From a virus, in the UHGV virus genome UHGV-0211441: a stretch of DNA of 35,609 nucleotides. The stretch is one strand, 5' to 3'. This document shows, one piece after another, positions 7,699 through 35,308 of the stretch. A program made the position numbers and the translations under genes. Every line of letters begins with the position of its first letter. Position 1 is the stretch's first letter. The notes below the pieces were generated by a model. That model saw only the letters and a list, made by a program, of their open reading frames with translations. It was not told the DNA's origin and searched no databases.

Positions 7699-7731
7699 CA
7701 TGTCACGACAACTTAACCCGAGGAAAGACCA

Positions 7732-7896
7732 ATGAGCGACAAGAATCAACCTTTGAATCTTGAACAGCAGGAATTCATTTTCCGAACCAAAGCGGAATTA
7801 TTGGCCGAGCTTATTAAATTCCAAATCCCCGGTAAATCCGAAGCGGAAGAACTGGCAGAAGTGGTCAATGCCGCATTCGATAAATTAACGGCTTAA
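7732..7896 (+). CDS. Small hypothetical protein (54 aa), first gene of a two-gene moron-like cassette
   Basis: Start preceded by the conserved cassette CGAGGAAAGACCAATG. Not in the supplied ORF track because it is under 60 aa. Confidence 0.45.
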   Translation: MSDKNQPLNLEQQEFIFRTKAELLAELIKFQIPGKSEAEELAEVVNAAFDKLTA

Positions 7897-7911
7897 TTCG
7901 AGGAAAGACCA

Positions 7912-8181
7912 ATGAGTGAAGCAAAACCGCAAGATGGCAGCACCGTGAAAGGCTATAGAAAATTAAGCGACGCAGAAATCGCAGCAATGAATCGCCTAAA
8001 AGAACTGAGTCGCAATTTTATTCGCGAGTTGCGAAATATTCAGTTGGATTTGTTACCGCAGGATCCAGTTCTCTCTGATCGCACTGCTGCTTACCGTAGT
8101 GCCGCGTTGGCGACCACAAAAATGCAGGAAGCCTGTATGTGGGGATGCCGTGCGGTAGCCCGCCCGGATGGAGACTGCTAA
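7912..8181 (+). CDS. Small hypothetical protein (89 aa), second moron gene; candidate anti-defence or host-interaction factor
   Basis: Same CGAGGAAAGACCAATG cassette. Followed by its own intrinsic terminator, and inserted between the scaffold and capsid genes. Confidence 0.55.
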   Translation: MSEAKPQDGSTVKGYRKLSDAEIAAMNRLKELSRNFIRELRNIQLDLLPQDPVLSDRTAAYRSAALATTKMQEACMWGCRAVARPDGDC

Positions 8182-8199
8182 ATAATTCCTCGCGAACTA

Positions 8200-8228
8200 A
8201 GCCAGCCTAACCCGCTGGCTTTTTTATT
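8200..8228 (+). terminator. Rho-independent terminator (AGCCAGC-N7-GCTGGCT + TTTTTATTT)
   Basis: Stem-loop and T-run seen directly, 19 nt after the stop of the 89-aa ORF. Confidence 0.7.
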
Positions 8229-8229
8229 T

Positions 8230-8250
8230 GGTCGGGATTCCGACCGCGCA
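8230..8250 (+). repeat. Copy 1 of the repeated hairpin motif GGTCGGGATTCCGACCGCGCA
   Basis: 6-bp stem GGTCGG/CCGACC with loop GATT. 20 of 21 bp are identical to copy 3 at 20961. Confidence 0.8.
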
Positions 8251-8396
8251 CCTCGCTAACAATCACCCCACAACCAGCCCGGCGGGGACGCCGGATACCT
8301 GATTTTCCCGCAATGCGCCAGCGCCAACCGCATTGTGCTGATTTGGGCCGGGAAACCGATACCCCGCAGGCGATACTTTCTGGAGTGATTGTTATG

Positions 8397-9305
8397 TCAT
8401 TTGATACCGCTAAGAACATGATCACCGCTGCGTATGTTCAGCAGTTCCATGATTCTTTCGAAATTGCCGCGCAGCAGAAGGATTCCCGCCTGCAAGCTGC
8501 TGTTTTCGACCGTGGCAACATTACCGGTGCGTCGTTCACCATCAACGATATGGGTACCATCGAAATGACCCAGATCACCGAGCGTTTCGGTGATACCGTC
8601 TGGGATCTGCCTGATGCCGGCACCCGTAATGCGCTGATGGCTGACTATGGCGTATTCGTGCCGGTGGAAAAGCGCGACCTGCGCAAACTGCTGGCTGACC
8701 CGCAGGGGCCATATTTGCAGCTGACGCTGGCCGCATCCAACCGCAAAAAAGATGATGTCATCTATCGCGCACTGCTGGATGACGTTCTGCGCAAAACCTC
8801 CAACACTGGCGCGTACGCTCCGGTTGCGCTTCCCGCATCGCAGAAAATCGTCGCCGGCGGTACCGGGATGACCAAAGCGAAGCTGATCGCCGCCAAAGCC
8901 ATGTTCCGTCGTAACGAGTGTGACGAGCAGAACGGTGAAGAGCTGTATATCACCTACAACGCCGACATGCTGACCCAAATCCTCAGCGATACCACGCTGA
9001 CCAGCGCCGATTTCATGGCAGTGAAAATGCTGCAGGAAGGCGCAGTGTCTGGTAACTGGCTGGGCTTTAAGTGGCTGGCGTATGAAAAACTGGATTCTGC
9101 TTCAGCAGGTGATCCCGCTGTCACCACCAAAACCGCCGCAGCTTGGTGTAAATCTGCTGTGCATTTCGGTACCGGCGAAGAGTACAACGTCGATATCGGC
9201 CCGCGCCGCGATAAAAACAACACCATTCAGATTTCCGTCGATGCGTCCTATGGCGCAGGCCGCGCAGCGGAAAACAAAGTAGTCGCCATCGATTTCGTAG
9301 CATAA
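8397..9305 (+). CDS. Major capsid protein (T7 gp10-like)
   Basis: 302 aa. SD GGAGTGA. Position follows scaffold, and the gene is followed by a strong terminator as with T7 gene 10/Tphi. Confidence 0.75.
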   Translation, partial: SFDTAKNMITAAYVQQFHDSFEIAAQQKDSRLQAAVFDRGNITGASFTINDMGTIEMTQITERFGDTVWDLPDAGTRNALMADYGVFVPVEKRDLRKLLADPQGPYLQLTLAASNRKKDDVIYRALLDDVLRKTSNTGAYAPVALPASQKIVAGGTGMTKAKLIAAKAMFRRNECDEQNGEELYITYNADMLTQILSDTTLTSADFMAVKMLQEGAVSGNWLGFKWLAYEKLDSASAGDPAVTTKTAAAWCKSAVHFGTGEEYNVDIGPRRDKNNTIQISVDASYGAGRAAENKVVAIDFVA

Positions 9306-9321
9306 AGCCGCTGGTGCCTTT

Positions 9322-9349
9322 GCCGGGGGATATCCCCCGGCCTTTTTTC
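9322..9349 (+). terminator. Strong rho-independent terminator (GCCGGGGGATATCCCCCGGC + TTTTTT) after the capsid gene
   Basis: Perfect 20-bp palindrome plus a T6 run, seen directly. Confidence 0.85.
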
Positions 9350-9364
9350 ATCTGAGGTAAGGCT

Positions 9365-9928
9365 ATGGCTGACAGTATTTCTATCTGCTCTAACGCACTG
9401 CTGGCGCTCGGCGCACACCCGATTAACAGTTTTGACGAAAACACCGATCACGCCCGCCTGTGCTCAAACCTTTATCCCACCGTACGCAATAAGCTGCTGC
9501 GCGCACATCCGTGGAACTGCGTTGTAAAACGTGTGGTTCTCTCTCCTGTCATTACAGCGCCGGTATTCGGTTTCCGCTTTCAGTTCGCACTACCCGGTGA
9601 TCTTCTTCGCGTTCTGTCCGTTGGTGAACCTTACGACGATATTCCGTACCGAGTCGAAGGCAACCGGCTGCTGGCGAACGTGCAGGTACTGAAGCTGCGT
9701 TATGTGTTTCGCAACGAAGACGAATCCACCTGGGATGCCGCGCTTGTTGATGTGGCGGAAATGATGATGCAGGCAAAGCTGGCCTATGCCGTCACCGGCT
9801 CTACCAGTCTGCGCGACAGTCTAGCCCAGGAATCGCTGGTACTGCTGAAGCAGGCGAAGGCTGTGGACGGTCAGGAAGACCCACCGGAAGAGCTTGGCGG
9901 CTATCCAACGTACGAATCGAGGTTCTGA
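9365..9928 (+). CDS. Tail tubular protein A (T7 gp11-like)
   Basis: 187 aa. The N-terminal segment resembles the N-terminal region of T7 gp11, as recalled from memory. Position after the capsid gene. Confidence 0.65.
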   Translation: MADSISICSNALLALGAHPINSFDENTDHARLCSNLYPTVRNKLLRAHPWNCVVKRVVLSPVITAPVFGFRFQFALPGDLLRVLSVGEPYDDIPYRVEGNRLLANVQVLKLRYVFRNEDESTWDAALVDVAEMMMQAKLAYAVTGSTSLRDSLAQESLVLLKQAKAVDGQEDPPEELGGYPTYESRF

Positions 9929-9929
9929 A

Positions 9930-11924
9930 ATGCGCGCCAATCTGATTAAAACAAACTTCACCGCCGGCGAAATTTCCCCGCGTCTAATGGGGCGTGTTGA
10001 TATCGATCGCTATGCAAACGGCGCGAAGACGCTGGAAAATAGCGTGGTCGTGGTGCAGGGCGGGGTAATGCGTCGCCCCGGCTCGCAGTTCGTAGCGGCC
10101 ACAAAGTACGGCGATAAAAAATCCCGCCTCATTCCGTACGTTTTCAATCGCACGCAGGCGTACATTCTGGAGTTTGGCGACGGCTATTTGCGAATTTACC
10201 AGGACGGTAAGCAGCTGGTGAACGAAGACAACACGCCGTACGAAATCGCCAGCCCGTACACCTCTGACATGTTGCCATCGGTAAATTACGTTCAGGGTGC
10301 TGATACCATGTTTCTGGTGCATCAGGCCGTTAAACCGCATCGCCTGCAGCGACGCGGGCAAACCGATTGGGTTCTGGAGCCAGCACCATTTATCGTTGAA
10401 CCCTTCGACGAAGTGCGCGACACGCCGCAAAAATGGTGCAAGCCATCAGTGAAAGAATTCGTCGGATCGGAAATCACGTTGACCCTGAGCGATGAAGAAC
10501 CGCCAGAAGGTAGCGAAGACCCGCCGCCGTTTACTGGTGATGGTTGGGTGTCTGAAGATGTGGGCTCGTACGTCAGGATTAACAGCGGTCTGGTGCTGAT
10601 TAAGAGCGTGACCAGTGCGCAGGTTGCCGTCGGTACCATTCGCACCGATTTAAGCGCAACGCAGGCAGCATCGCCGGGCGCCTGGACTCGCGAGGATTCC
10701 GTCTGGACGGATGAATTTGGATACCCGGGTGCAGTAACGCTTTACCAGCAGCGGCTGGTTCTGGCTGGTTCGCCGCAGTATCCGCAAACTATCTGGTGGA
10801 GCGAATCGGGCGTATACCTCTCTTTCGAGCTGGGAACCGATGACGACGACGCGATCAGCTTTACGCTGTCTTCTGACCAGCTTAACCCGATTGTGCACCT
10901 TGCACAGATGAATACGCTAATTGCGCTGACGTATGGCGGCGAGTTCACCATTACCGCCGGCAACGATGCGGCGATAACGCCTACCAATATTTCGGTAAAA
11001 AATCCCAGCCCGTACGGGTGCAATGGGATCCGCCCGGTGCGCGTCGGTACCGAGATTATGTTCGTTCAGCGTTCTGGACGTAAACTCTACGCTGTCGCCT
11101 ATGACCCCGACAGCTATGTAGCCTATTCGGCCAACGATATGACCGTACTGGCGGAACACATCACAGAAGGCGGCGTGATCGATATGGCGTATCAGCAACA
11201 ACCTGATGCGTTTACCTGGCTGGTTCGCAATGATGGCGTAATGGTGACGATGGCTATCGACCGGGCGCAGAACGTTGTCGCGTGGTCACGACAGATCACC
11301 AGTGGTGCGTTTGAGTCCGTAGCGACTATTCCCTCAGCGACTGACGATGTGGTGTACGCCATTGTGCGCCGTGCGGTCAACGGCCAGACCGTTCGCTATG
11401 TCGAAATGTTCAGTAACGCCCTGTACACCGATGCAGCCGTGACGGGATCCAGCGACGCCGGCGCAACGACATGGGGCGGCCTGTCGCACCTCGAAGGCGA
11501 GGCCGTCGATATTGTTGCAGACGGCTCTGTGATGCCGCAGGCGGTCGTATCATCCGGCCAAATCACGCTATCGCGTAAAGCCTACAAAGTCGAAATCGGC
11601 CTGCATTTTGAAACGACCATTACCACGCTGACGCCTGAAGTCGCTACATCAGAAGGTACCACGCAGAATACCCGCAAGCGCACCAGTGAAGTCACTATGC
11701 GTTTCCTCCAAACCACTGGCGCCGAGTGCAACGGCCAGGTGATCCCGTTCCGCACGTTCGGGCCAAAAATCCTCAACCAGCCGGCGCCGTTATTCACCGG
11801 CGATCACTACTGGGGAAAACTAGGCTGGGAACGCGGAGAAGACACGCTGACTATTCAGCAGCGCCAGCCGCTGCCGTTCCACCTTCTCGCCATTGTCATC
11901 GTCTTTACCAGCAACGGGGGCTAA
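9930..11924 (+). CDS. Tail tubular protein B (T7 gp12-like)
   Basis: 664 aa. ATG overlaps the gp11 stop (TGAAATG). SD is GAGG. Synteny supports the call. Confidence 0.6.
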   Translation: MRANLIKTNFTAGEISPRLMGRVDIDRYANGAKTLENSVVVVQGGVMRRPGSQFVAATKYGDKKSRLIPYVFNRTQAYILEFGDGYLRIYQDGKQLVNEDNTPYEIASPYTSDMLPSVNYVQGADTMFLVHQAVKPHRLQRRGQTDWVLEPAPFIVEPFDEVRDTPQKWCKPSVKEFVGSEITLTLSDEEPPEGSEDPPPFTGDGWVSEDVGSYVRINSGLVLIKSVTSAQVAVGTIRTDLSATQAASPGAWTREDSVWTDEFGYPGAVTLYQQRLVLAGSPQYPQTIWWSESGVYLSFELGTDDDDAISFTLSSDQLNPIVHLAQMNTLIALTYGGEFTITAGNDAAITPTNISVKNPSPYGCNGIRPVRVGTEIMFVQRSGRKLYAVAYDPDSYVAYSANDMTVLAEHITEGGVIDMAYQQQPDAFTWLVRNDGVMVTMAIDRAQNVVAWSRQITSGAFESVATIPSATDDVVYAIVRRAVNGQTVRYVEMFSNALYTDAAVTGSSDAGATTWGGLSHLEGEAVDIVADGSVMPQAVVSSGQITLSRKAYKVEIGLHFETTITTLTPEVATSEGTTQNTRKRTSEVTMRFLQTTGAECNGQVIPFRTFGPKILNQPAPLFTGDHYWGKLGWERGEDTLTIQQRQPLPFHLLAIVIVFTSNGG

Positions 11925-12376
11925 TGATGATTCGTAACGCCACAGCCGGGGATATTCCGGCGCTTATCGAGCTGGGAACCCGGATGTATCTCGAGTCCCG
12001 TTACTCGCAAAACTCGCCGTTTGATGCTGATAAATGCGCAGAACTGGCGCAAAGCCTGATTTATTCGCCGTCTGGTTGCGTACTGGTCGCCGAAAAAGAC
12101 GGGCAGGTGATCGGCTGGCTTGGCGGCGGTATTGCCGAGCAATTTTTTTCCCGCCAGTTGATGGCCTTCGAGTATGGCTTATTCGTCGCGCCAGAACATC
12201 GTGGCGGCAGCGCCGGCCCGAGACTGGCCCGCGCGTTTATCGACTGGTCAAAAGAGCACGGCGCCGCCGTTATCAACATGGGGATCACCACTGGGGTGCA
12301 CGCAGAACGCACCGGCCAGTTGTATTCGCGTCTCGGCCTGCAGCAAACAGGCCTGCTTTATTCGATGGAGGTTTAA
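11925..12376 (+). CDS. GNAT-family N-acetyltransferase (RimI-like size), embedded in the virion module
   Basis: 150 aa. Acetyl-CoA binding motif VIGWLGGGIAEQF...RGGSAGPRL (Q/RxxGxG/A-like). Confidence 0.7.
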
Positions 12377-12378
12377 CG

Positions 12379-12867
12379 ATGTGCACTGGCGTAGAAATTG
12401 CCCTGGTGGCGTCCACGGTGTTAGCCGCTGGCGGCGCAGCGTATAGCGGCCAGCAGCAGAAAAAAATGGCGAATTATCAGGCCGCCCAGGCTGAAGCTGA
12501 CGCTGACGCGTCAAAAGCGGCTGCAAAGGTTGAAGCCGACCGTATCCGTAAAGCCGGGCGTGAACAGGCTGCTGCGGCTAACGCTTCGCTGGCGGCGTCG
12601 GGTGTTGAAACCGGCGAAGGTACCGCGCTGCGTATCACCTCTGGAATTACTGAAGACGCCGAACAGGACGCCTACCAGACGATCCTTAATGGCGTGAATT
12701 CGTCTAACCGTCTGCAGGCGCAGGCGCAAGCTGACCGCATCAGCGGAAGAAATGCAGCGACGGCTGGAAACATCAGCGCCGGCAGTTCGCTTTTAAGCGC
12801 TGGCGGGACGGCGTATAGCGGCTGGCAAAAGGCTAAAACTGGCAAATACGGATTATATGCGGAGTAA
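12379..12867 (+). CDS. Internal virion protein candidate (gp13/gp14-like), Ala/Gln-rich
   Basis: 162 aa. SD GGAGG. The tool's 277-aa ORF (12034..12867) is an in-frame upstream extension. Confidence 0.4.
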   Translation: MCTGVEIALVASTVLAAGGAAYSGQQQKKMANYQAAQAEADADASKAAAKVEADRIRKAGREQAAAANASLAASGVETGEGTALRITSGITEDAEQDAYQTILNGVNSSNRLQAQAQADRISGRNAATAGNISAGSSLLSAGGTAYSGWQKAKTGKYGLYAE

Positions 12868-12872
12868 TAAAA

Positions 12873-15587
12873 GTGAGAATTCCAACGGGTAATTTTGGCA
12901 ATGTAACGCCGCAGGTACAACCTACGCGCGTCGCAGTAAGCAATGTGGGCGCTGTGGGTAACGCAGTATCCGGTTTTGGTGCTGCTGCGGGGCAGGTAGC
13001 AGAGCAGGTGCAGCGCGATCAGGATAAAGCCGACGTAGCGGCCACGCAGGCTATTCTGACCGATCTGGAAGCTAAATCTAATGACCGCTGGGAAAACCCG
13101 GAGACGGGCGCCACGGTCACGCGTCAGGGCTTTAAATCGTCCGGTGTGGTCACTGATATGGATAAGGCCGATGCTGGCGATTACGAGGAAGCGCGCAAGC
13201 GCGTTCCGCCCAGCCAGTTAAACTATTTTGATGCTCAGTGGAAAGCGGGGCAGGTACGCCGGACAAGCACCTATAGCGGTTTTGAACGTGCACAGACTGA
13301 GGAAGCCCAACGCCAGCAGCTTAACGCGACGGTGACCTCTTCAGTTGAACAGGAGGCCAGCGCCTACGATAACCCGATGCAGGCAGGGCTGATACGCAGC
13401 GCCCGTAAACACTCTATCGAGATGTATGGCCAGGCGCGCGGCTGGCCGCAGGAACGTATCGACGCGGCGGTATCGGAAGCGAACCAAAAAGCGCTGGAGC
13501 AGCGCGCGCAGAACTACGCGGTAACCAATCCAACCGGCTGGCTTAATGGCGATTTTACGCTGGTCAACAGTAGCACCGGCGAACTTGATATGCGCGCCGT
13601 TGGCCTGGTGGAATCTGGCGGCAAGCACCGCAATGCAGACGGTAGCCTTGTTACATCCCCCGCGGGCGCGCAGGGTGAATTCCAGTTGATGCCTGACACC
13701 GGGAAAGAACTGGCGTCTAAACGTGGCGTAGAGTACAACCCGGACGACCCTGTGCAGCATGCGCAGCTGGCGCGCGATTATGCGGGGCAGCTCAGTAAAA
13801 AATATCAGTCTGAAACGTTAGCCGGCGCTGCGTATAACTGGGGGATGGGTAACGTCGATAAGCTGATCGCTAAAGTCGGCGACCCGCGAAAAGGCGAAAT
13901 CTCAATGGCGGATTTTGTTAAGCAGCTGCCAGCCGAAACGCGTGGTTGGCTTTCTCGCTACAACAAAAACAAAACTGGTCTCGACCCGGTAGCAGTAAAC
14001 AAAATCGACAATATCGCCGAATCGCAGATCCGCCAGCAGCGTACGGCGCTTCGCCAGCAGATGGAGCCAATCGTTAATAATACATTTTCTCAGCTGTACA
14101 ACGGTGATGTTCCCGAAGCGATGCCTAATGCCGAAACCATCATGTTCATGTACGGCGAGAAAGGGCAGCAGGTAGTAAAGCAGCTGGATATCGCGATAGA
14201 TACCGCCAGAACATTCCAGGCTATCCAGTACGTTACCCCGGCAGAACAGCAGGCCGAACTGGCGAAAGTGAAGCCGCAGGCAAACGACCCGGATTATGCG
14301 CTGAAACTCGATGCGTATGGCAAACTCAGTGCGCTGGTGCAGAAGAGCAACGCCAATATTCAGGCGCAGCGTGATTCCGCCCGTTTTAATGACGCGCTGC
14401 TCTCCGGCGAGAAACTCGACCCGAGCAACAAATCCATGCAGAAGGCGGCGGACAATACGCCATCGGCGCTTAACTTCCGCATTAACGACGCCACCACTCA
14501 CGACGCCATCGTACAGCAGGTTAACCAGACGGGCATTATCCCATCGCAAGTTACATCGCAGCTGAATGCTATTTCTCGCTCTGATAGCCCAGACGTGGTG
14601 AAGCAGGGGGCTAATTTGTTCGATTCCCTGTACAGGGCGGATCCTGCATCTATTAGCGACATGCCAAAGGATATGCAAAGTTTTTACCTGACAGTTAAAC
14701 AGTTATCCGATGCTGGAATGGCACCCGATGCGGCTGTAAAACAAGCGCAGAACGTTACTTATAACCAGACTGACGCCCTGAAATCGCAATTGTCTTCTAC
14801 GCAGAGCACGAAGGAATACAAAAAAGAGCGTGCCAGCGCGATGGGTTCCGCAGTCAGCAGCATGAAACCATGGTACAGCTTTGGCGGTCCTGCAGCGGAT
14901 GACCAGAATCTTAACGCCGTCAATTTCCGTAACGACTACCAGTCACTTTATGACATCAACTATCGCAACTCGGGTGGTAATGCTGATGTTGCCAAAAAGA
15001 TGACTAATACCCAGATCGCCCGTACCTGGAGTCTTAGCGATGTAAATGGCAGCACCCAGTTTATGAAATACGCGCCTGAAGCGCTCTATAACTACGGGCC
15101 GTCTGGTTGGCAGGCTGCGCAGTGGAAAGAAGAAAAAGAGCGTCTGACTTATGGCGAACGCGGAGAAAAAATTGAAACCAGTCCGACCCAACTAGGAATT
15201 ACATCAGGTTCAGCCCCTGTTATTACATCAAATACACCTGAATCCCGAATCGGTGGTGAACTGGAAATTATCCCTGACGTTTTAACCACGCGTAACGGTG
15301 ATTACGCCATTATGGTACGCATGAAAGATAAAGATGGTAACGAGAGCGTACAGCCATATTACGATAAATTCAGACGTCCCATGCGCTGGAAACCGTCGCT
15401 GGAAGACTGGGAACCATATAAAAAAATGCAGCAAGAGAGAGAACAAAAAGATCAGGAAAAAGTTATTCGTGGTGAAAGTAGATATGACTTTAAAACGAAG
15501 CATCGCGCGCTCGATGAGCAATATCAGCGTTTGCATGATGAGCGTATGAACCGGGTTAAAAACTACTTTTCATGGAGCAATGAATAA
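12873..15587 (+). CDS. Internal virion/ejection protein with soluble lytic transglycosylase (SLT) domain (T7 gp16 N-terminal-like)
   Basis: 904 aa, GTG start with GGAG. SLT motifs: LVESGG (catalytic Glu-Ser), GEFQLMP, AAYNWG. Confidence 0.75.
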   Translation: MRIPTGNFGNVTPQVQPTRVAVSNVGAVGNAVSGFGAAAGQVAEQVQRDQDKADVAATQAILTDLEAKSNDRWENPETGATVTRQGFKSSGVVTDMDKADAGDYEEARKRVPPSQLNYFDAQWKAGQVRRTSTYSGFERAQTEEAQRQQLNATVTSSVEQEASAYDNPMQAGLIRSARKHSIEMYGQARGWPQERIDAAVSEANQKALEQRAQNYAVTNPTGWLNGDFTLVNSSTGELDMRAVGLVESGGKHRNADGSLVTSPAGAQGEFQLMPDTGKELASKRGVEYNPDDPVQHAQLARDYAGQLSKKYQSETLAGAAYNWGMGNVDKLIAKVGDPRKGEISMADFVKQLPAETRGWLSRYNKNKTGLDPVAVNKIDNIAESQIRQQRTALRQQMEPIVNNTFSQLYNGDVPEAMPNAETIMFMYGEKGQQVVKQLDIAIDTARTFQAIQYVTPAEQQAELAKVKPQANDPDYALKLDAYGKLSALVQKSNANIQAQRDSARFNDALLSGEKLDPSNKSMQKAADNTPSALNFRINDATTHDAIVQQVNQTGIIPSQVTSQLNAISRSDSPDVVKQGANLFDSLYRADPASISDMPKDMQSFYLTVKQLSDAGMAPDAAVKQAQNVTYNQTDALKSQLSSTQSTKEYKKERASAMGSAVSSMKPWYSFGGPAADDQNLNAVNFRNDYQSLYDINYRNSGGNADVAKKMTNTQIARTWSLSDVNGSTQFMKYAPEALYNYGPSGWQAAQWKEEKERLTYGERGEKIETSPTQLGITSGSAPVITSNTPESRIGGELEIIPDVLTTRNGDYAIMVRMKDKDGNESVQPYYDKFRRPMRWKPSLEDWEPYKKMQQEREQKDQEKVIRGESRYDFKTKHRALDEQYQRLHDERMNRVKNYFSWSNE

Positions 15588-19003: not shown

Positions 19004-19020
19004 TCTAATGTTCCTTGTGA

Positions 19021-24961: not shown

Positions 24962-25099
24962 TTTTTGCTTATTTGGCTGTTATTCTGTCAGAAGATGGTG
25001 GCTGGAAATGGAGTAAGTAACTGATTGTTATAAGCTCAAATAATGCTCTATGTTCGGATTAAAATTGTATGTGATTGATAATTATATCTTTCACGACCA

Positions 25100-25155: not shown

Positions 25156-25197
25156 TTGGGATAAAGTAGAATAATCAAAGCAATAAGCAGTGTCGTG

Positions 25198-25220
25198 AAA
25201 CCACCTCCGGGTGGTTTTTT
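25198..25220 (+). terminator. Rho-independent terminator (AAACCACC-TCCG-GGTGGTTT + TTTTTT) just downstream of the tRNA fragment
   Basis: Seen directly. Confidence 0.5.
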
Positions 25221-25284
25221 CATTTCTGAAGCGTCATTTCCGAAGATGCGTCCGAAGATTGTTTTTCTACGAACGCATAGCGAT

Positions 25285-26533: not shown

Positions 26534-26693
26534 GGTCTTTCCTCAGCATGCCGGCTATAGCGTTGTCTGCTGTATCGCAAGCGCGCTGGATATCGGACTG
26601 GGTCAGAGTCCTCTTTCTAACGCTGGCTGATAGCCTGCCAATTTTGATATCGAATTCTGAAAGTAAAACTACACCTGGTTGCCAACGTAGCAT
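26469..26693 (-). CDS. Hypothetical small protein (74 aa), overlaps xis 5' end in another frame
   Basis: ATG with GGAG at -10. The 64-nt overlap with xis makes it uncertain. Confidence 0.25.
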   Translation of the reverse strand: MLRWQPGVVLLSEFDIKIGRLSASVRKRTLTQSDIQRACDTADNAIAGMLRKDHETRSRHHNQRGNDRADGDAT

Positions 26694-26742
26694 TGTGATC
26701 TCCGGTTTATTGGTAGACCACAATGCTATCGGTAGTGATGGG

Positions 26743-26928
26743 TTATTTCTGATTACGCTTAATCAGGTTTTGTTTCGGTCGGAATGCGCCATCTTCACGC
26801 GTTATTTTGATATTGCGAGGGAAGTGCATGCCGAGTTCGCAACGGGCCCGCGCTTCGATAATTGCATTGGTTCCATCTGGTAAAACGACATGAACCGCAT
26901 CACCTTTCTTCAGGGATAGTCTCAGCAT
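26743..26928 (-). CDS. Hypothetical small protein (62 aa)
   Basis: ATG one nt after the upstream gene's stop (TAATATG). KGDAVHVVLPDGT segment; no confident family. Confidence 0.35.
   Translation of the reverse strand: MLRLSLKKGDAVHVVLPDGTNAIIEARARCELGMHFPRNIKITREDGAFRPKQNLIKRNQK
26748..26765. repeat. 18-bp dyad element TCTGATTACGCTTAATCA, copy A (identical copy B at 31501..31518)
   Basis: Exact 18-bp identity between two sites ~4.7 kb apart. Internal inverted repeat TGATTA-CGCT-TAATCA. Confidence 0.8.
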
Positions 26929-26929
26929 A

Positions 26930-27496
26930 TTAGCGTACCTGCAGTGAACGTTCGCCGATTTCAATATGGGCGCCCGGAACCGGGTTTAAGAGTTCTTCCG
27001 GGACTTCCCCACCATCTGCGGTAATCTGAGCTGCGGCCGCTTCTGCTGACTCGATAGCCTCTTTGATTGCCTTTTTGTCAGGCGCAACTACTGTCTGAAC
27101 GGTCACCAATTCATCCGGGAGTAAATCAACGTTATCGATCACCACGTTGATTGCACCTTTACGGGCGGTGAAGGTGTTTTTTGCCGTTTTTACGGTATCC
27201 TGTCCGGCGGCCAGAAGGCACTGGAGAACATATTTCTTCAGGTTGGTGATCTTACCTTCGAAAGACTTTTTACGGGCGGCCAGGCGTTTGGCTTCTTCGT
27301 CGCAGGTTTTCGCCAGGCCTTCAAGGTTGCGAACGTGGACGAATACCGCGTCCAGTTTGTCGCCGAGCTGCAGCTCGAGCCCCTCCATTGTATCGGCGAT
27401 CATTTCAGCTGACAGACCAGAACCGTCTTCGTTTTCCAGAAGCGCCTGGAGTTTAGACATATCAGCAGCGATAGCAATTGCAGTTGTGGAAGTCAT
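26930..27496 (-). CDS. Sipho_Gp157-like coiled-coil protein (recombination-module associated)
   Basis: 188 aa. SD GAGGAGAAAG. Coiled-coil composition and its position directly downstream of the annealing-protein gene. Confidence 0.45.
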   Translation of the reverse strand: MTSTTAIAIAADMSKLQALLENEDGSGLSAEMIADTMEGLELQLGDKLDAVFVHVRNLEGLAKTCDEEAKRLAARKKSFEGKITNLKKYVLQCLLAAGQDTVKTAKNTFTARKGAINVVIDNVDLLPDELVTVQTVVAPDKKAIKEAIESAEAAAAQITADGGEVPEELLNPVPGAHIEIGERSLQVR

Positions 27497-29640: not shown

Positions 29641-29672
29641 TGGTCTTTCCTCGTTTGTAACTAATTCGCTGG

Positions 29673-29957
29673 TTAGGCATCTTGTTTAATTTCAGGGAGC
29701 AGTCCAGCGATCACGCGTTCTGCCGTTTTTTTTGCTTCTTCCAACTGTTCTAGTTCGCGTTCGAGATGAACCTTTTGGCTTTCTGCCAGTTCTTTAATTT
29801 CTGATGAATCGACTTTGAGATAGCTCTCGCCGTTTCTACCTTCCGCTAAAATCCCGGAGGAGCGGCATTCGTTACTGCAAATATTGATAATTCTGTTTGC
29901 GCGATCTAAGCGGTCTTTAATTTCGCGAATTCTTTCAAGCAATTTTCTAATATCCAT
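29673..29957 (-). CDS. Hypothetical coiled-coil protein (94 aa), early-left operon
   Basis: Start at MDIRKLL with the GAGGAAAGACCATG cassette. The tool ORF is extended 13 codons upstream. Confidence 0.5.
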   Translation of the reverse strand: MDIRKLLERIREIKDRLDRANRIINICSNECRSSGILAEGRNGESYLKVDSSEIKELAESQKVHLERELEQLEEAKKTAERVIAGLLPEIKQDA

Positions 29958-30000
29958 GGTCTTTCCTCTTGGTTGCAGGCGCAGGTCACGCGCCACTTAA

Positions 30001-30324
30001 TTAAAACGGTACGTCGTTTTCTTCAATCGGAGAGTGGTCGATGCACAGCAGCTGCTGGATCTTGTCATCGACCGCGGCGATTTGTCTTTTCGCATCGGCT
30101 GCAATGATTTCTTTCTGGGCGCGCAGTTGGTCAACCTGCAATGCGATAATGTCGAAAGGCTCTGGTTGATTTACTTCGATATTTATTTCGCGTGTTTCCA
30201 GCAATACGTAAGCATCAGGATAGTTTTGTGACATGTCACAAGTAAAAATCATGAACTTTTCAGATGAAAACGTGTTGGTTGTGTAGTGGATGTATAGCTT
30301 TACGGGGATGGTAAGCGCTTCCAT
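30001..30324 (-). CDS. Hypothetical protein (107 aa), first substantial gene of the leftward operon
   Basis: Start at MEALTIPVKL with an AAGGAG SD sequence. The tool ORF is extended upstream. Confidence 0.5.
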   Translation of the reverse strand: MEALTIPVKLYIHYTTNTFSSEKFMIFTCDMSQNYPDAYVLLETREINIEVNQPEPFDIIALQVDQLRAQKEIIAADAKRQIAAVDDKIQQLLCIDHSPIEENDVPF

Positions 30325-30540
30325 AGCGACTCCTTGGTGATGTATACTCAGAGCCGATCGGCGACTCTGTCGTTGGTCTTTCCTCGCTACAGGGTTGGTC
30401 CCCTGTAGCACTCCTGGCGGATTGGTCTCCGCTGGGGTAAATCAGCCCACTCCGGTGGGCTTTTTTACGCCTGAAGGTTGCCGGTCTTTCCCGGCTGTCA
30501 GGATGGTCAGTCCCATTGGTCTTTCCTCGTTACCGTGTGA

Positions 30541-30566
30541 AAAAAATGCCCCGGGCGCCGGGGCCA
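30541..30566 (-). terminator. Rho-independent terminator in the pL leader (GCCCCGG-CGC-CCGGGGC + UUUUUUU on the leftward transcript)
   Basis: Seen directly on the minus strand. Confidence 0.7.
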
Positions 30567-30744
30567 AGACTACACACAGCAATTCACATTCGTTGCGGTC
30601 TTTCCCGCATGTCATCGTACTGTCGGCGACCCGAAGAATTCTTGCCCGTCTTTCCGGACTGTCAGAACTGTTTCTGAACAACTGCCGCGTGGTTAGTGCG
30701 TCGTTGATGTGATGGAGCTTAACCAAAGGTAAGTTGCTGGTCAA

Positions 30745-30812
30745 CGCAATTTACTTAAAAAATGTTAAGCTTGAAAGGGTGCGATTATAACTAAATGAAT
30801 TGTATGGTTATT
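30745..30812 (-). promoter_or_regulatory. pL-like leftward early promoter region with operator CTTA-N8-TAAG (30754..30769)
   Basis: Minus-strand candidates: TTCAAG-N16-TAAATT with the operator in the spacer, or TATAAT at 30784..30789. The 16-bp dyad CTTAAAAAATGTTAAG has the same half-sites as the pR operator. Confidence 0.4.
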
Positions 30813-31209
30813 TTTTTTGTGATTTTTTTCTTGTTGCTAAGAGCTCTTCAAATAGCTTGTTAAAGCCTTCAACGCGAGACTCCAATTCAGTCAAATGTCT
30901 ATCTTTTTCAGATTCGGGAAGTGAATCAAATAGATCCAGAAGTTTTAACTGGCGAGCATCTAATTCTTTTGGCAATTCTTCAACGGGGAGGGGGGATTGA
31001 TCTTCGTCGCCGTATAAGAGCCAGGTAGGGGAACACTTGAGAGCTTTACTCAATTTGAACAGGTTTTGCCCTCTAGGTTCTGTCTCACCGTTTTCCCATT
31101 TGAAAATTGTGACGTGCGAAACCTTCACAGCATCGGCCAGCTTTTGCTGTGACATATCGAGTTCTGTTCTTCTGCGACGAATACGGTCGTTTAGCTCTGC
31201 GTTTTTCAT
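30808..31209 (-). CDS. cI-like repressor, XRE-family HTH, no S24 peptidase domain
   Basis: 133 aa. HTH QQKLADAVKVSHVTIFKWENGE. C-terminal coiled coil. Essentially leaderless start, like lambda cI from pRM. Confidence 0.8.
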   Translation of the reverse strand: MKNAELNDRIRRRRTELDMSQQKLADAVKVSHVTIFKWENGETEPRGQNLFKLSKALKCSPTWLLYGDEDQSPLPVEELPKELDARQLKLLDLFDSLPESEKDRHLTELESRVEGFNKLFEELLATRKKSQKK

Positions 31210-31228
31210 GGGGTTAATGTAAATTAAT

Positions 31229-31255
31229 TTGACTTAGCTTTTGTTAAGTTATAAT
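31229..31255 (+). promoter_or_regulatory. pR-like promoter TTGACT-N15-TATAAT with dyad operator ACTTAGCTTTTGTTAAGT (31232..31249) in the spacer
   Basis: Near-consensus hexamers seen directly, but the 15-bp spacer is short. Drives cro, whose GTG start has an AAGGAGG SD sequence. Confidence 0.55.
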
Positions 31256-31287
31256 TTCCAAACAAACGTTAACGAAGGAGGTACCCA

Positions 31288-31482
31288 GTGCTAACCGAAG
31301 ATGCAGTTAAGTATTTTGGCAGTAAGGCCAAATTGGCGAAGGCACTCGATGTCTCGCAACCAGCTGTTTCACGTTGGGGAACGATGATCCCTGAAAAGAG
31401 GGCTGCTCGTTTGTCACTGATGACTGATGGTGTTCTGGTCTATGACCCGAAGGCTTACCAACTGCCAGCTAAATCAGCTTAA
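31288..31482 (+). CDS. Cro-like repressor (YdaS/Cro HTH family)
   Basis: 64 aa. KLAKALDVSQPAVSRWG HTH. Divergent from cI. Confidence 0.75.
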   Translation: MLTEDAVKYFGSKAKLAKALDVSQPAVSRWGTMIPEKRAARLSLMTDGVLVYDPKAYQLPAKSA

Positions 31483-31500
31483 CAATCCGCGTGATCTAAA

Positions 31501-31518
31501 TCTGATTACGCTTAATCA
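31501..31518. repeat. 18-bp dyad element TCTGATTACGCTTAATCA, copy B (between cro and the CII-like gene, the nutR/tR1-equivalent position)
   Basis: Identical to copy A at 26748. Confidence 0.8.
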
Positions 31519-31542
31519 ATTTTCAGCGACAGGAGACGCGAA

Positions 31543-31989
31543 GTGGAGAACCTCGAGGAACTGAAACGAGAGATATTCAGCTGGGCAGCTGAAAGCGGGC
31601 AGGAGCTGGTTGCTATCGAGATAAGCCGTATGTGGTTTCGTCTCGGTGGTAACACCGGTGTGCTGAAGCTGCACCAGATTGAAGATGCAGATGGAAATGC
31701 AGACTGGCGGGCCATCAACAATAACCGCCAACAGATTTTTCGCTGGCTGCGTGGTGAGACGAAAGCGGCCAGAACTAAAACCCAGACGCTGGCTAAAGCG
31801 ATGGAAGCGGCATTGCCGGCAGAACGCTACGCGCGCCTGGACATGTCCACCCAGTATTTGATCTGCGTCGCCATACGCGAGTTTGCGGCGGCCATTATCG
31901 CGTTATTGCTCGAGGCCAGAGACGGCCCGCAGCAAGTCGCGAAGGCATTGCAAGCGATGCGAGAAACACAGCGCCTGACCAGCGTTTAA
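31543..31989 (+). CDS. CII/YdaT-like regulator candidate
   Basis: 148 aa, GTG start with AGGAG. Its position after cro mirrors ydaS-ydaT/cro-cII pairs. Similarity is judged from memory only. Confidence 0.4.
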   Translation: MENLEELKREIFSWAAESGQELVAIEISRMWFRLGGNTGVLKLHQIEDADGNADWRAINNNRQQIFRWLRGETKAARTKTQTLAKAMEAALPAERYARLDMSTQYLICVAIREFAAAIIALLLEARDGPQQVAKALQAMRETQRLTSV

Positions 31990-32011
31990 CCTGTACCGAG
32001 GAAAGACCAAC

Positions 32012-32230
32012 ATGCAGACAACTACAGACCGTATCACCTGGCGGAACGGCTTCCGCCTGAATGGTGAGCCTGCCTTCATGTGTGACGTGCAGGAGATTTT
32101 CGAAGAACGTCTCACTGCCAAAAAATGGGAACTCTACGAACTGCGCAAAGCCGAGCTGCGGGAAGAGAACCTCACGCCTAAAGAATACGAAAACGCCTGC
32201 CGCCAGCTGGCCGATATGCTGGGGATCTGA
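32012..32230 (+). CDS. Hypothetical small protein (72 aa)
   Basis: CGAGGAAAGACCAACATG cassette. Confidence 0.5.
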   Translation: MQTTTDRITWRNGFRLNGEPAFMCDVQEIFEERLTAKKWELYELRKAELREENLTPKEYENACRQLADMLGI

Positions 32231-32232
32231 TT

Positions 32233-33216
32233 ATGAGTATGACGCTTATGGCCAAAGCTATGGCTATCAAGACCGGTAATCCGATTAGAAAACTGGTGCT
32301 GATCAAACTGGCCGATAATGCCAATGATTACGGCGAATGCTGGCCGTCTTACAAACATATTGCGGATCACTGCGAGTGCAGCAAAAGCGCAGTACGCGAT
32401 CACATCGATGCGTTGATTTCTATGGGCCTACTGGTGAAAGAAAACCGCCCGGGTGTAAAAAACGGGAAGGGTAACGCGTCGAATCTGTACTGTATGAAAC
32501 TTGATAACCCTATGCCGCCAAAAAGCATAGCCCCTATGCCGTCAGAAAGCACAGGTATGCCGCCAAAAAGCATAGCCCCTATGCCGTGTGGCGGCACCAG
32601 AACCAGTCACTCTTTTGAACCAGTCATAGAACCTAAAGATCCCCCTACCCCCCAAACGGGGGAAAACGGCGAGCGTATTTTTTCTGATGCTCAAAAAGCG
32701 CTTGAGTTTTACAACGAAAAAACCGGTACCCGCTGCCGTGACCTTAAACCGTTTGTGATGATGCTGACGCCGACCACTACCCGGGACGGGTATACCCTGG
32801 CAGAAATCCAACTGGTGATCCGCTGGGTGCTCGCTACATGGCGCCGCCGCGGAGAAAGCCTGCCGAAGCCAGCGAACATCTGCCGGGTAAATCGCTTTGA
32901 TGGTTATCTCGCTGACGCTGAAGCATGGGCAGTGACCGAAACCGATATTGACCCGGAAGCCGTCATGAGCGGCTACAACGAAATTTTTGCTGATACGTTG
33001 CCAGCGGCAGAACTGGACGACGATCGCCGCCGGATGATTACCAGACTGGCCGCCCACATGAAAAACAAAACTACAGGCGCATTCCTGGGCTACTTCGAAA
33101 AATTCCGTGCTGATGCGTCAGATTTTTATTTCGGCCTCAGCGGAGGATGGCGCGCTAGCTTTGACTACCTGATGAAACCTGAAACGTTACGTAAAACCCG
33201 GGAAGGTTCGCTATGA
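32233..33216 (+). CDS. Replication initiator (lambda O-like; N-terminal HTH_36-type DNA-binding domain) with internal iterons
   Basis: 327 aa. N-terminus IRKLVLIKLADNANDYGECWPSYKHIADHCECSKSAVRDHIDALISMGLL is typical of phage replication initiators. Internal repeats PMPPKSIAPMP x2 correspond to DNA iterons. Confidence 0.75.
   Translation: MSMTLMAKAMAIKTGNPIRKLVLIKLADNANDYGECWPSYKHIADHCECSKSAVRDHIDALISMGLLVKENRPGVKNGKGNASNLYCMKLDNPMPPKSIAPMPSESTGMPPKSIAPMPCGGTRTSHSFEPVIEPKDPPTPQTGENGERIFSDAQKALEFYNEKTGTRCRDLKPFVMMLTPTTTRDGYTLAEIQLVIRWVLATWRRRGESLPKPANICRVNRFDGYLADAEAWAVTETDIDPEAVMSGYNEIFADTLPAAELDDDRRRMITRLAAHMKNKTTGAFLGYFEKFRADASDFYFGLSGGWRASFDYLMKPETLRKTREGSL
32508..32590 (+). repeat. Candidate replication origin: four TATGCCG-containing iterons (two 32-bp direct repeats TATGCCGCCAAAAAGCATAGCCCCTATGCCGT) inside the initiator gene, followed by an A/T-rich stretch (~32675..32725)
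   Basis: Direct repeats at 32511..32542 and 32556..32587 seen directly. Analogous to lambda ori inside gene O. Confidence 0.5.
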
Positions 33217-34601
33217 CTCCGCAGGAACTGGAAGCTTGTGTGCTGGCCGGACTGCTGAACGGCGGCGCAAGCCCGGACGCGTTCGACGTGATCGCCTCTA
33301 CTCCTGAAGAATCTTTCAGCATCGGTTTTCACCGTCGCGCGTTCTCCGAAATTAAAAAACAGGCGCTGGCGAACGGTCTGATCGACATGTTGTTTGTCAG
33401 TGAAGCGCTGGGCGGTAGCAGCCTGGCTGATTTATCAGAGATTACGCGCATGCCTGCCACTGTACCGAACCTGAAGGGTTACGCCGGGAAAATGGTTAAG
33501 GCGTGGCGCAGTCGCCGTATGGCTGAATTACTGCAGCAGGGTGCTGACGGTATCCGCCAGGCCAATAATCAGGAGCAGCGCGATCAGGTTGTCGAAAGTG
33601 CGGTGGCGCAGCTGCTGGACATGACCGGCGATACTGGCGACGTGCAGCCGGTTCACATCAGCGATTTGCTGCCAACCTACATGGAGACGGTACAGAAACG
33701 CATGGACGGCGAAGCCGGTACCCGAAACCTGAAGACTGGTATCGACGAACTGGATGATGCCACCGGCGGAATTAACCTGCAGGATTTGATTGTTGTCGCT
33801 GGCCGCCCGGGCATGGGTAAAACAGAGTTTGCGCTGAAGATTGTCGATGGTGTTACCGCTGCCGGCGGCGGGGCGCTGATATTCAGTATGGAAATGGCCG
33901 CAGCGCAAATCGTAGAACGCTCTCTGGCGGGCTCTGGCAACATGTCGGTGTCACGCCTGCGTAATCCCCTCGATATGCAGGACGAGGACTGGGCGCGCTT
34001 TACAGCGGCCATGGAGACCATGAACGGGCGTGATATCTGGATCGTTGACGCTACCGATCTCACGATTGAGCAAATCCGCGCCGTTGCCGAGACACATAAG
34101 CGCCGTTATCCGCATCTGGCGATGATTGTTGTTGATTACCTCGGCCTGATTAAAAAGCCGAAGGCAGAGCGTAACGATCTGGCGATCGCCCATATTTCCC
34201 GAAACCTTAAAACTATGGCTATGCGCCTGCATACGCCGACGTTTGCACTCAGCCAGCTTTCGCGCGCGGTGGATTCCCGCCCGGCAGGCCAGCGCCGCCC
34301 GGTTATGTCAGACCTCCGCGACTCCGGTTCTATTGAGCAGGATGCCGACAGCATCATGTTTCTGTACCGCGATGAAGTCTACAACCCGGAAAGCCCGGCA
34401 GCGGGCATCGCCGAAATCATCCTGGGGAAAAGCCGATTCAGTGCCGCCGGCGCGGTTATCTACCAGGAGTTTAAAAACGGCCATTTCCTTCACGTCGATC
34501 AGCATGTCGGCAAAGAGAAAACACGTATTCAACTGGAGGCAGCAAAACCACGAAAACAACCGCGTAAATACTCAGAGAAATATAACACTGATGCATTTTA
34601 A
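33213..34601 (+). CDS. Replicative DNA helicase, DnaB family
   Basis: 462 aa. Walker A GRPGMGKTEFAL; Walker B MIVVDYLGLI. Overlaps the initiator stop (ATGA). Confidence 0.9.
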   Translation: MTPQELEACVLAGLLNGGASPDAFDVIASTPEESFSIGFHRRAFSEIKKQALANGLIDMLFVSEALGGSSLADLSEITRMPATVPNLKGYAGKMVKAWRSRRMAELLQQGADGIRQANNQEQRDQVVESAVAQLLDMTGDTGDVQPVHISDLLPTYMETVQKRMDGEAGTRNLKTGIDELDDATGGINLQDLIVVAGRPGMGKTEFALKIVDGVTAAGGGALIFSMEMAAAQIVERSLAGSGNMSVSRLRNPLDMQDEDWARFTAAMETMNGRDIWIVDATDLTIEQIRAVAETHKRRYPHLAMIVVDYLGLIKKPKAERNDLAIAHISRNLKTMAMRLHTPTFALSQLSRAVDSRPAGQRRPVMSDLRDSGSIEQDADSIMFLYRDEVYNPESPAAGIAEIILGKSRFSAAGAVIYQEFKNGHFLHVDQHVGKEKTRIQLEAAKPRKQPRKYSEKYNTDAF

Positions 34602-34639
34602 CCGCGCCTGACCAGCGCGATATAACCGAGGAAAGACCA

Positions 34640-35308
34640 ATGACCACAAATTTAAATTACCCAAAACCAGTTAATCCGGATGATGGCTGCAACTGGTTAC
34701 CCGTTATTTTATGGCGCATGAACGCCGGCGCCCGCGCGCGTAGTCGTTCTGTATTTGTTGCCGCACCGCGACCAGAACCAGTGCCGGGGATTACTCCGCA
34801 AAAGCCAATTAAACGCGAAGCGCCGCTGCCAGCAGTTTCAGGCCGTCGCCGTAAAACCCATCTCGGTACCGTGATTTATTCCAAAGGCGAAAAAACCGTG
34901 CGCCTGAGCGAAGGTGTCACCGTCTGGTCTGCCGGCGCTAATGAGCATTTCGACAAAAAGACCGGTCAGCGTGTCGGCGGTGCTGGCCGTCATCGCCTGG
35001 TACTCGACAGCGTTCGTCCACTGCTTGCCAGCGACGATCAACCGGGCGCCGGGAAAGTTACCGCGCAGCAGCTGGTTGCCGTGATGAAAGGTAAAACTCT
35101 TTCTTATCAGACCATTCTCGCCCAGCTACAGAAACACTATCCAGAATGCCAGGTAACGATTAAAGAAATTCAGGATCGCGTATTCAGCATGTTCAATTCG
35201 AATTATGTCGGTATCACTCGGCATGACGATACGCCGGTAGTTCATTTCACGCTTAACAGCGTGGATCCCCGTTATTACGTCGAGTCAGCGAAAAACAAGA
35301 GGGTTTAA
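34640..35308 (+). CDS. Hypothetical protein (222 aa), nin-like region
   Basis: CGAGGAAAGACCAATG cassette. No family recognised. Confidence 0.5.
   Translation: MTTNLNYPKPVNPDDGCNWLPVILWRMNAGARARSRSVFVAAPRPEPVPGITPQKPIKREAPLPAVSGRRRKTHLGTVIYSKGEKTVRLSEGVTVWSAGANEHFDKKTGQRVGGAGRHRLVLDSVRPLLASDDQPGAGKVTAQQLVAVMKGKTLSYQTILAQLQKHYPECQVTIKEIQDRVFSMFNSNYVGITRHDDTPVVHFTLNSVDPRYYVESAKNKRV

Follow-up and report, generated by a model that had tools for sequence, protein, structure and literature searches.

The 35,609-nucleotide (nt) virus genome UHGV-0211441, called here in its full length the window, contains nine copies of an 11-nt sequence, GAGGAAAGACC, eight of them directly upstream of an ATG. We propose that the phage encodes an antisense small RNA (sRNA) for which this cassette, in the form GAGGAAAGACC(A)AUG, is the shared target site; the sRNA would block the Shine-Dalgarno (SD) sequence and the AUG of about seven genes. 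We put the probability of this reading at roughly 0.6. The evidence comes from the conservation of the cassette in related prophages, from a conserved RNA structure opposite one of its copies and from the complementarity between the two.

The initial annotation had described one exact cassette reused by at least eight genes on both strands, and this was borne out. The nine copies compare with 0.01 expected, none of 100 shuffles reached nine, and no one-mismatch variant of GAGGAAAGACC was found in the window. All nine are oriented sense relative to the local operon. The ATG follows within 0–3 nt in eight copies, with a spacer of 1 nt in five of them. All eight starts named in the initial annotation were present, although the ATG of the short upstream open reading frame (uORF) in the leader is at 30516 instead of 30515; the ninth, start-less copy had been missed, and it is the key to the mechanism proposed below. 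The C described as preceding the motif is found in only seven of the nine copies. The copies are distributed as follows, seven in the early arms and two at morons of the late operon:

7720–7730, plus strand: cassette, 1-nt spacer, ATG 7732 of a 54-amino-acid (54-aa) moron without family match
7900–7910, plus strand: cassette, 1-nt spacer, ATG 7912 of an 89-aa protein, an anti-defence-like moron
26534–26544, minus strand: cassette abutting ATG 26533 of the excisionase gene xis (DUF4224, phrog_1266)
29642–29652, minus strand: cassette, 1-nt spacer, ATG 29640 of a 714-aa exonuclease-family gene
29958–29968, minus strand: cassette abutting ATG 29957 of a 94-aa open reading frame (ORF)
30375–30385, minus strand: 'orphan' cassette followed by AACGAC, without start codon; the plus strand reads GGTCTTTCCTC, the seed of the predicted sRNA
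30518–30528, minus strand: cassette in the early-left leader, just past the terminator of an RprA-like element, 1-nt spacer, ATG 30516 of the uORF
31998–32008, plus strand: cassette, 3-nt spacer, ATG 32012 of a 72-aa gene (phrog_2465)
34628–34638, plus strand: cassette, 1-nt spacer, ATG 34640 of a 222-aa gene (phrog_4183)

The core of the cassette is a GAGG SD sequence with near-optimal spacing and an A/C-rich spacer, and the remaining approximately 36 genes of the window, in a crude gene table, have ordinary and varied SD sequences. The 714-aa product belongs to an exonuclease/endonuclease family (phrog_2489; 'phage-associated endonuclease' in RefSeq), and its original label as an annealing protein was abandoned, an annealing role not having been demonstrated. 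The 89-aa protein (7912–8181) contains an Acb2/Tad1 hairpin domain (PF24729, E=1.2e-16). The family of the 54-aa moron carries the cassette in relatives too, and the 24-codon uORF extends into the sRNA-complementary region of the leader.

Conservation of the cassette was assessed in related prophages, among them 80 IMG/VR loci gathered via the exonuclease protein (51–99% identity). All 80 contain the exact 11-mer, in 3–8 copies each and in one copy in the truncated locus L081. Taken together, exact GAGGAAAGACC copies recur at matching gene positions in 86 of 87 related prophage loci, 3–8 per locus, even where protein identity has fallen to 51%. Both strands of 2.39 Mb from related loci yielded 472 exact matches (0.6 expected) and 54 with one mismatch (19 expected), about 15 of the latter at positions of ribosome-binding sites (RBSs). 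The orthologous sites fall into classes, namely those of the exonuclease, xis, 222-aa, 72-aa and 94-aa genes, the leader sites and the start-less site. Orthologous copies are exact while their flanks diverge, in relatives spanning five host genera. The initial annotation had named ordinary, divergent RBSs in related phages as counter-evidence to exact reuse; the comparison came out the opposite way, the orthologous cassettes being letter-perfect. These alignments indicate that the cassette is under strong selection and is a trait of a whole enterobacterial prophage family. Genome records list Raoultella, Escherichia whittamii, Rosenbergiella and Enterobacter as hosts, and the family is present in 10 of 5426 complete E. 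coli genomes. In the closest named phage, 'Stenotrophomonas' phage BUCT708, whose early region is approximately 85% identical, the 11-mer is present unchanged five times, at orthologous genes and with differing flanks. The BUCT708 record (L001, OM816834) gives Stenotrophomonas maltophilia as host, an assignment which looks doubtful because the genome has 50% G+C and all relatives found are in Enterobacterales.

More distant relatives use other cassettes. In a second lineage the Serratia prophage L285, whose exonuclease is 33% identical, and eleven relatives carry GAGGCATGACC in 4–6 copies at equivalent types of site; in a third lineage GGAGCATAACC occurs alongside GAGGATTAACC-type forms. The 3′ ends of 16S rRNA are essentially identical throughout Enterobacterales. 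Since all three lineages belong to this order and their cassettes differ, the ribosome alone dictates no single optimum, and this, together with the uniformity within lineages, calls for a lineage-specific reader.

Opposite the early-left leader the plus strand carries a conserved, strand-specific and terminated RNA structure preceded by a -10 box. Its elements are:

30343–30348, plus strand: -10-like hexamer TATACT (TATAAT in some relatives), 5 nt before a conserved CCGATC
30355–30466, plus strand: predicted antisense sRNA of approximately 112 nt opposite the early-left leader (alignment, covariation and covariance model)
30444–30461, plus strand: intrinsic terminator AGCCCAC-TCCG-GTGGGCT-TTTTT (promoter/terminator scan)

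This plus-strand terminator is surrounded by genes that are all encoded on the minus strand; it lies 59 nt beyond the orphan cassette, and the T-run is on the plus strand in 23 of 23 distinct homologues. The 5-nt distance between the -10 box and CCGATC is the same in three lineages with unrelated upstream context. The 5′ part of the predicted sRNA forms a stem (GAUCGG.../...UUGGUC), which is followed by single-stranded UUUCCUC, hairpin 1 (30387–30408) and hairpin 2 (30417–30432); the loops of both hairpins are UUGGUC. The sRNA carries the exact complement of the cassette, UUGGUCUUUCCUC, which is partly exposed, its UUUCCUC part being predicted to be single-stranded.

The structure was evaluated in alignments of 42 distinct flanks and in a trimmed set of 23 distinct sequences. 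The alignment revealed an invariant TTGGTCTTTCCTC, invariant loops and stems with many compensatory changes. RNAalifold gave a consensus energy of -34.2 kcal/mol with double changes in 12 of 31 pairs, and the fold of the window RNA had a minimum free energy of -59 kcal/mol (z = -6.5). Standard pairs account for 98.9% of the 702 pair cells, including 138 G·U, compared with 79.8% on the sense strand. The 138 G·U cells would be A·C on the sense strand, and the structure was therefore assigned to the antisense strand, which was also the more stable one in 23 of 23 sequences, by a mean of 16.7 kcal/mol. None of 500 shuffles matched the observed pairing or covariation score, and slid controls were 42–50% paired. 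While the stems covary, the unpaired seed and both UUGGUC loops are invariant. Although most relatives lack a start codon at the orphan copy (52 instances have the AACGAC form), its sequence is no less invariant.

A covariance model built on this structure matched 86 of 87 loci of the first lineage, the segment 30355–30466 of the window scoring 123 bits, and found one sRNA copy per locus, always opposite the exonuclease gene. It also returned weaker but significant homologues in the second and third lineages, where the RNA lies opposite the RBS of the exonuclease gene itself and contains the complement ...UUGGUCAUGCCUC or ...UUGGUUAUGCUCC, with the same terminator and the same -10-to-CCGATC distance as in the first lineage. 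The complementarity between seed and cassette is perfect, and the two change jointly between lineages. Judged from the sequence the orphan copy of the first lineage looks like a relic of an exonuclease gene start, because BUCT708 still has an ATG there. An IMG/VR string scan for GAGGAAAGACCAATG returned, among the matches listed, many probable chance singletons; the covariance model matched 34 of 100 contigs found by the cassette string alone, again among the matches listed. In L286, L302 and L323 neither a repeated cassette nor a covariance-model match was found. L302 and L323 have, at approximately 5850–6000, an antisense-oriented terminator (GGCCCGC-TTCG-GCGGG-TTTTT) with a TAGAAT box upstream of the exonuclease gene and several CAUUGG repeats in the same upstream region; judged by its sequence, this element may represent an sRNA that has diverged strongly and recognises a different target word, CCAAUG.

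The word GGAAAGAC occurs 12 times in the window (1.1 expected). All 12 are in sense orientation, which rules out a phage-encoded antisense copy elsewhere and means that the complement is made only by transcription opposite a cassette. The sRNA region is without annotation in RefSeq, and in BUCT708 it is occupied by a 37-aa hypothetical protein (32436–32549). A scan of the whole window against Rfam at E<=1 returned only RprA and no family for the plus-strand sRNA. A focused scan at E<=10 gave no match to C4, and its best plus-strand match was rsmX with 21 bits against a gathering threshold of 56. Within the searchable library, a literature search for the cassette or its complement found neither in a phage context. 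The svsR RNA of prophage NC-SV is a different RNA, located at the 3′ end of cI.

Folding of full-length duplexes gave meaningless long-range structures, and the fit between sRNA and translation initiation regions (TIRs) was calculated from seed-only duplexes and from net cofold energies. The seed-only duplexes had energies of -24.7 to -32.6 kcal/mol for seven cassette TIRs, compared with a mean of -12.7 for 36 others. With the costs of unfolding included, the net energies were -12.5 to -18.7 kcal/mol for the seven and -4.7 on average for the 36. The sole comparable TIR without cassette belongs to the 107-aa gene, with a leader that lies in direct antisense to the sRNA. At cassette genes the complementarity extends over 13–18 nt including SD and AUG; in the exonuclease (CGAGGAAAGACCAAUGAC) and 222-aa genes it reaches 18 nt and covers SD, AUG and codon 2. 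The commonest context after the cassette is AATGAC (118 of 471 instances), and complementarity to the sRNA continues into AAUGAC in unrelated genes.

A second element recurs in front of the cassette. In 88 of 190 distinct contexts a hairpin with a GC stem and a YUGACCW loop is located 8–12 nt upstream. Covariation is seen in the stems, where six G·U pairs are compatible with the sense strand and none with the antisense strand. Three such mRNA hairpins are present in the window:

31970–31986, plus strand: AGCGC-CUGACCA-GCGUU, 11 nt upstream of the cassette of the 72-aa gene
34603–34619, plus strand: CGCGC-CUGACCA-GCGCG, 8 nt upstream of the cassette of the 222-aa gene
29978–29994, minus strand: GGCGC-GUGACCU-GCGCC, 9 nt upstream of the cassette of the 94-aa ORF

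The GACCA of these loops is complementary to the UGGUC of the sRNA loops UUGGUC. According to the modelled arrangement a kissing contact between sRNA hairpin and target hairpin would be geometrically possible, since the sRNA hairpin is located at the end of the seed that would be turned towards the target hairpin.

Further hairpins with related loops are clustered in the leader, to which the predicted sRNA is antisense:

30481–30657, minus strand: early-left leader segment with three GAAAGA-loop hairpins and a CUGACCA hairpin
30481–30494, minus strand: leader hairpin CCGG-GAAAGA-CCGG
30501–30513, minus strand: leader hairpin GGA-CUGACCA-UCC
30595–30608, minus strand: leader hairpin GCGG-GAAAGA-CCGC
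30646–30657, minus strand: leader hairpin CCG-GAAAGA-CGG

These hairpins are partly complementary to the seed or to the loops of the sRNA, and those with GAAAGA loops share GGAAAGAC(C) with the cassette; they would be further partial sRNA sites. The GAAAGA and CUGACCA loops resemble the boxB loops of lambda and P22. An N/boxB antitermination system was considered and dropped in favour of sRNA complementarity: no Arg-rich N-like ORF was found, the first early-left gene encoding the acidic 107-aa protein, and there is no such hairpin after cro.

The same leader contains an RprA-like element (30538–30639, minus strand) just downstream of a PL-like promoter. With 37.7 bits it is below the cut-off of the RprA family (RF00034, gathering threshold 70). 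The 3′ half, composed of AAUUGCUGUGUGUAGUCUU and a strong terminator, follows the RprA consensus almost exactly and recurs at a different position in the Serratia-lineage prophage L285 (9065–9105), and the 5′ half holds the GCGG-GAAAGA-CCGC hairpin, which is complementary to the sRNA seed. The element might be the phage's imitation of a host sRNA, or it might serve as a sponge that takes up the antisense RNA.

By analogy with enterobacterial sRNAs and with the phage antisense RNAs c4, OOP and sar, we infer that the sRNA is transcribed, pairs in trans and represses. It would pair over 13–18 nt with the SD sequence, the spacer, the AUG and sometimes codon 2 of the xis, exonuclease, 94-aa, 72-aa and 222-aa genes, of the leader uORF and of the two late morons, and in cis with the early-left leader. 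Pairing would block binding of the 30S subunit and would keep the genes off until early transcripts outnumber the sRNA. Incoming genes that bear the cassette would plug into the same control. Transcription from PL converges on the sRNA gene and the leader is the perfect complement of the sRNA, so full derepression should titrate the sRNA, and this might, speculatively, create a threshold switch. The initial annotation had suggested, among other explanations, a shared site for a translational regulator acting like T4 RegA. The proposal of a shared site is retained in principle, with the antisense sRNA encoded in the window in place of a RegA-like protein as the candidate regulator.

Several observations weigh against this mechanism. 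Structure prediction places a portion of the seed (UUGGUC) in the 5′ stem, where it would be sequestered. The promoter of the sRNA combines a good -10 box with a weak -35, and the RNA itself is a prediction. The joint change of seed and cassette is partly automatic in the second and third lineages, where the sRNA overlaps the exonuclease RBS, because any antisense transcript across a cassette contains its complement. In L006, L035, L281 and L284 the sRNA has a GUGGUU loop and a seed ending in ...CCUA, and the targets are still GAGGAAAGACC. A strict co-variation of loop and cassette is contradicted by natural variants and holds only loosely. The third lineage tolerates several cassette variants, and the hybrid L319 has two cassette types and a single sRNA match. 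Finally, the rationale for repressing anti-defence morons of the late operon together with early genes is not evident.

The nearest analogue of the cassette itself is found in mycobacteriophages. The start-associated sequence (SAS) of Cluster K phages is a 13-bp repeat with an SD core, which is located 3–7 bp from the starts of non-structural genes in 11–19 copies; in the extended form (ESAS) an inverted repeat precedes half of the copies, and the arrangement is conserved across subclusters (Pope et al. 2011, PMC3203893). Its reader is unknown, RNA or protein having been proposed as binder, and each K1 genome has one reverse-oriented copy away from gene starts (PMC3203893). The function of SAS was still unverified in the literature of 2025. 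Both repeats are short, asymmetric, contain an SD sequence a few nt before mostly ATG starts, occur in one orientation in about 10–20 copies (nine for the cassette) mainly at non-structural genes of different families, and are preceded by an inverted repeat in about half of the cases (88 of 190 contexts here). The differences concern the sequence (GGGATAGGAGCCC with <=2 mismatches, confined to Cluster K, versus GAGGAAAGACC in Enterobacterales prophages), the hosts (Actinobacteria versus Enterobacterales), the hairpins, which covary as RNA at the cassette whereas the ESAS repeats did not, and the reader, since SAS is without a known one and the cassette has a specific predicted complementary RNA gene. 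As GAGGAAAGACC fails the sequence definition of SAS, the cassette is an analogue and not a member. By analogy, the reverse-oriented SAS copy of K1 genomes might encode an anti-SAS RNA.

The cassette could also be read by a protein or another factor of phage or host that is not an sRNA, in which case the antisense RNA would be confined to cis effects on the early-left leader or the exonuclease RBS. This is compatible with a motif that is position-locked to start codons and strand-specific, with the recurrence of sense words (GGAAAGACC, GACCA) in leader loops and pre-cassette hairpins, where they might be protein sites or decoys, with the presence of two cassette types in the single genome of L319, and with the binders proposed for the analogous SAS. 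We consider it unlikely. No candidate RNA-binding protein was detected among the ten early and moron proteins scanned, and restriction of the RNA to cis action leaves unexplained why the orphan copy matches the other copies across 86 loci and why three unpaired UUGGUC motifs are invariant.

We consider it equally improbable that the cassette is simply a very good cis-acting RBS, kept uniform by gene exchange at a linker or boundary and lacking a dedicated trans-acting reader. The GAGG core and its spacing are what such an RBS would have, the phage encodes its own recombination functions, and several junctions look exchanged. The 94-aa ORF (29673–29968, minus strand), which has no family match, is bounded by two cassette copies; it is absent from BUCT708 and many relatives, present in 14 of the first 81 loci, and by its sequence looks like an insertion or deletion that arose by recombination between cassettes. 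The same upstream sequence is joined at the cassette to different downstream genes, two xis alleles and several 222-aa-type genes.

The late region was surveyed in 80 loci (L082–L161) gathered via the capsid protein, in which late-region cassettes are confined to the slot between the scaffold and capsid genes. This slot is empty (116–138 nt) in many relatives and filled (about 340–1157 nt) in others, and at least four unrelated small-gene families in it begin with AAC(T/A)TAAnnn-GAGGAAAGACC-(A/G)(A/G)TG. In a few relatives the slot genes have a one-mismatch cassette or an ordinary RBS. Portability, which had been offered as an explanation of exact reuse, is partly supported by these cases and by the 94-aa ORF; most copies, however, are at orthologous positions and were inherited by descent. 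The comparisons indicate that the cassette travels with cargo genes, yet most copies stay in place.

Exchange at a linker leaves much of the conservation unaccounted for. At orthologous sites 11 of 11 positions are invariant while flanks have diverged by 15–50%, although SD and spacer should tolerate changes, and flanking identity between copies is too low for gene conversion. Sister lineages of the same bacterial order have different, internally uniform cassettes, which argues against a single ribosomal optimum, and the start-less copy has no place in this explanation. Only the GAGG(A) of the cassette can pair with the 3′ end of E. coli 16S rRNA. Extended pairing was rejected as an explanation for 11 invariant positions, as the pairing of GACCAA with 1527–1533 needs a bulge and opening of helix 45. 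CsrA-type GGA sites were discarded because there is only one GGA per site.

Far less probable is a site for a sequence-specific endoribonuclease or for RNA processing, of the kind recognised by T4 RegB at the GGAG of early SD sequences. The cassette does overlap the SD of a mostly early subset of genes and is often preceded by a small stem-loop, as are many processing sites; no nuclease candidate was identified and the data require no cleavage. Processing is compatible with sRNA control, since either RNase III or RNase E could be drawn to an sRNA-mRNA duplex. An asymmetric operator or 'stoperator' in the DNA, bound by the phage repressor or another DNA-binding protein, is hardly tenable, for although the repeat is intergenic and oriented with transcription like the stoperators of Cluster A, it keeps a fixed distance of 0–3 nt to the start codon and includes the SD, the hairpins associated with it show RNA-type covariation, including G·U pairs that fit one strand only, and no copy is located at the cI/cro divergent promoter region.

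Among known systems the closest proposed mechanism is that of c4 in the immI operon of P1 and P7, a small phage RNA which in P1 is needed for full repression of ant. c4 pairs with short complementary sites covering the RBS, and matched changes of RNA and target between P1 and P7 set immunity specificity. It arises by processing of the transcript that also contains its targets, and its control is exerted on a single operon via two sites. The sRNA proposed here differs in coding strand, target number and portability, being transcribed from the opposite strand and facing an identical target at about seven genes in three transcription units. The OOP RNA of lambda (against cII), the sar RNA of P22 (against ant) and the CI RNA of P4 are likewise short, terminated RNAs of immunity or early regions, which pair with early transcripts and lower early functions. 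Unlike the cassette regulon, OOP and sar have a single overlapping target, and P4 CI terminates transcription at leader repeats; we know of no multi-gene regulon defined by an identical RBS cassette on mobile morons for any of the three. T4 RegA and RegB provide coordinated post-transcriptional shut-off of many early genes via their translation initiation regions, RegB recognising GGAG. These are proteins of loose sequence specificity, in contrast to an exact 11-mer matched by RNA, and no homologue of either was detected among the ten window proteins scanned. In its covarying structure on the plus strand and its conserved unpaired seed complementary to several TIRs, the predicted RNA resembles Hfq-type trans-acting sRNAs.

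Some neighbouring features of the window were recorded. The scaffold-capsid slot (7698–8313, plus strand) is a cargo hot spot with at least five different families, including the Acb2/Tad1 hairpin-domain protein, and a terminator-like hairpin (8199–8221) lies downstream of its cargo. An AbiL abortive-infection pair (734–2492, minus strand; AbiLii, 174 aa, E=3e-12, and AbiLi, 407 aa, E=1e-70) forms a prophage-borne defence module between a methyltransferase gene and the late genes. A 148-aa gene in the cII position (31543–31989, plus strand) is named 'toxin YdaT family protein' in a RefSeq relative and had no PADLOC match. The segment at approximately 25094–25224 matches, at 88–92% identity, the attP/insertion site annotated in phage mEp390 as well as the ends of many E. 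coli prophages, and a near-identical prophage in E. coli 23GD11002 adjoins a tRNA-Gly/Cys/Leu cluster; from these matches the segment is probably an attachment site overlapping the 3′ end of a tRNA gene.

A more extended version of the sRNA model, in which cassette, antisense RNA and early-left leader form a complete RNA circuit, is offered tentatively and is possible rather than probable. In the lysogen or at low transcript levels, the sRNA would silence excision, recombination and replication-associated genes together with anti-defence morons. The derepressed leader, with two cassettes, three GAAAGA-loop hairpins and the full-length complement, would act as a sponge and release the genes together. 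The pairs of cassette and seed (AAAGACC, CATGACC and CATAACC) would define specificity groups acting on superinfecting relatives as a form of translational immunity, mobile morons would enter the regulon merely by carrying the 11-mer, and a single reverse-oriented copy serving as an anti-SAS RNA may explain the SAS of mycobacteriophages.

The analysis draws attention to an unannotated RNA gene, at which public records are blank or show a short hypothetical protein. The cassette is a second, independent example of a start-associated repeat, in prophages of Gram-negative bacteria and with a concrete candidate reader. If the proposed mechanism is true, the sRNA and its RBS would make a compact orthogonal pair for engineering. 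The mechanism would reveal a phage regulon set by one portable 11-nt RBS address, in which a single RNA gates excision, recombination, replication-associated genes and anti-defence morons, and would illustrate the way in which phages connect recently gained genes to their regulation. The lineage-specific pairs of seed and cassette would then represent a new layer of phage specificity.

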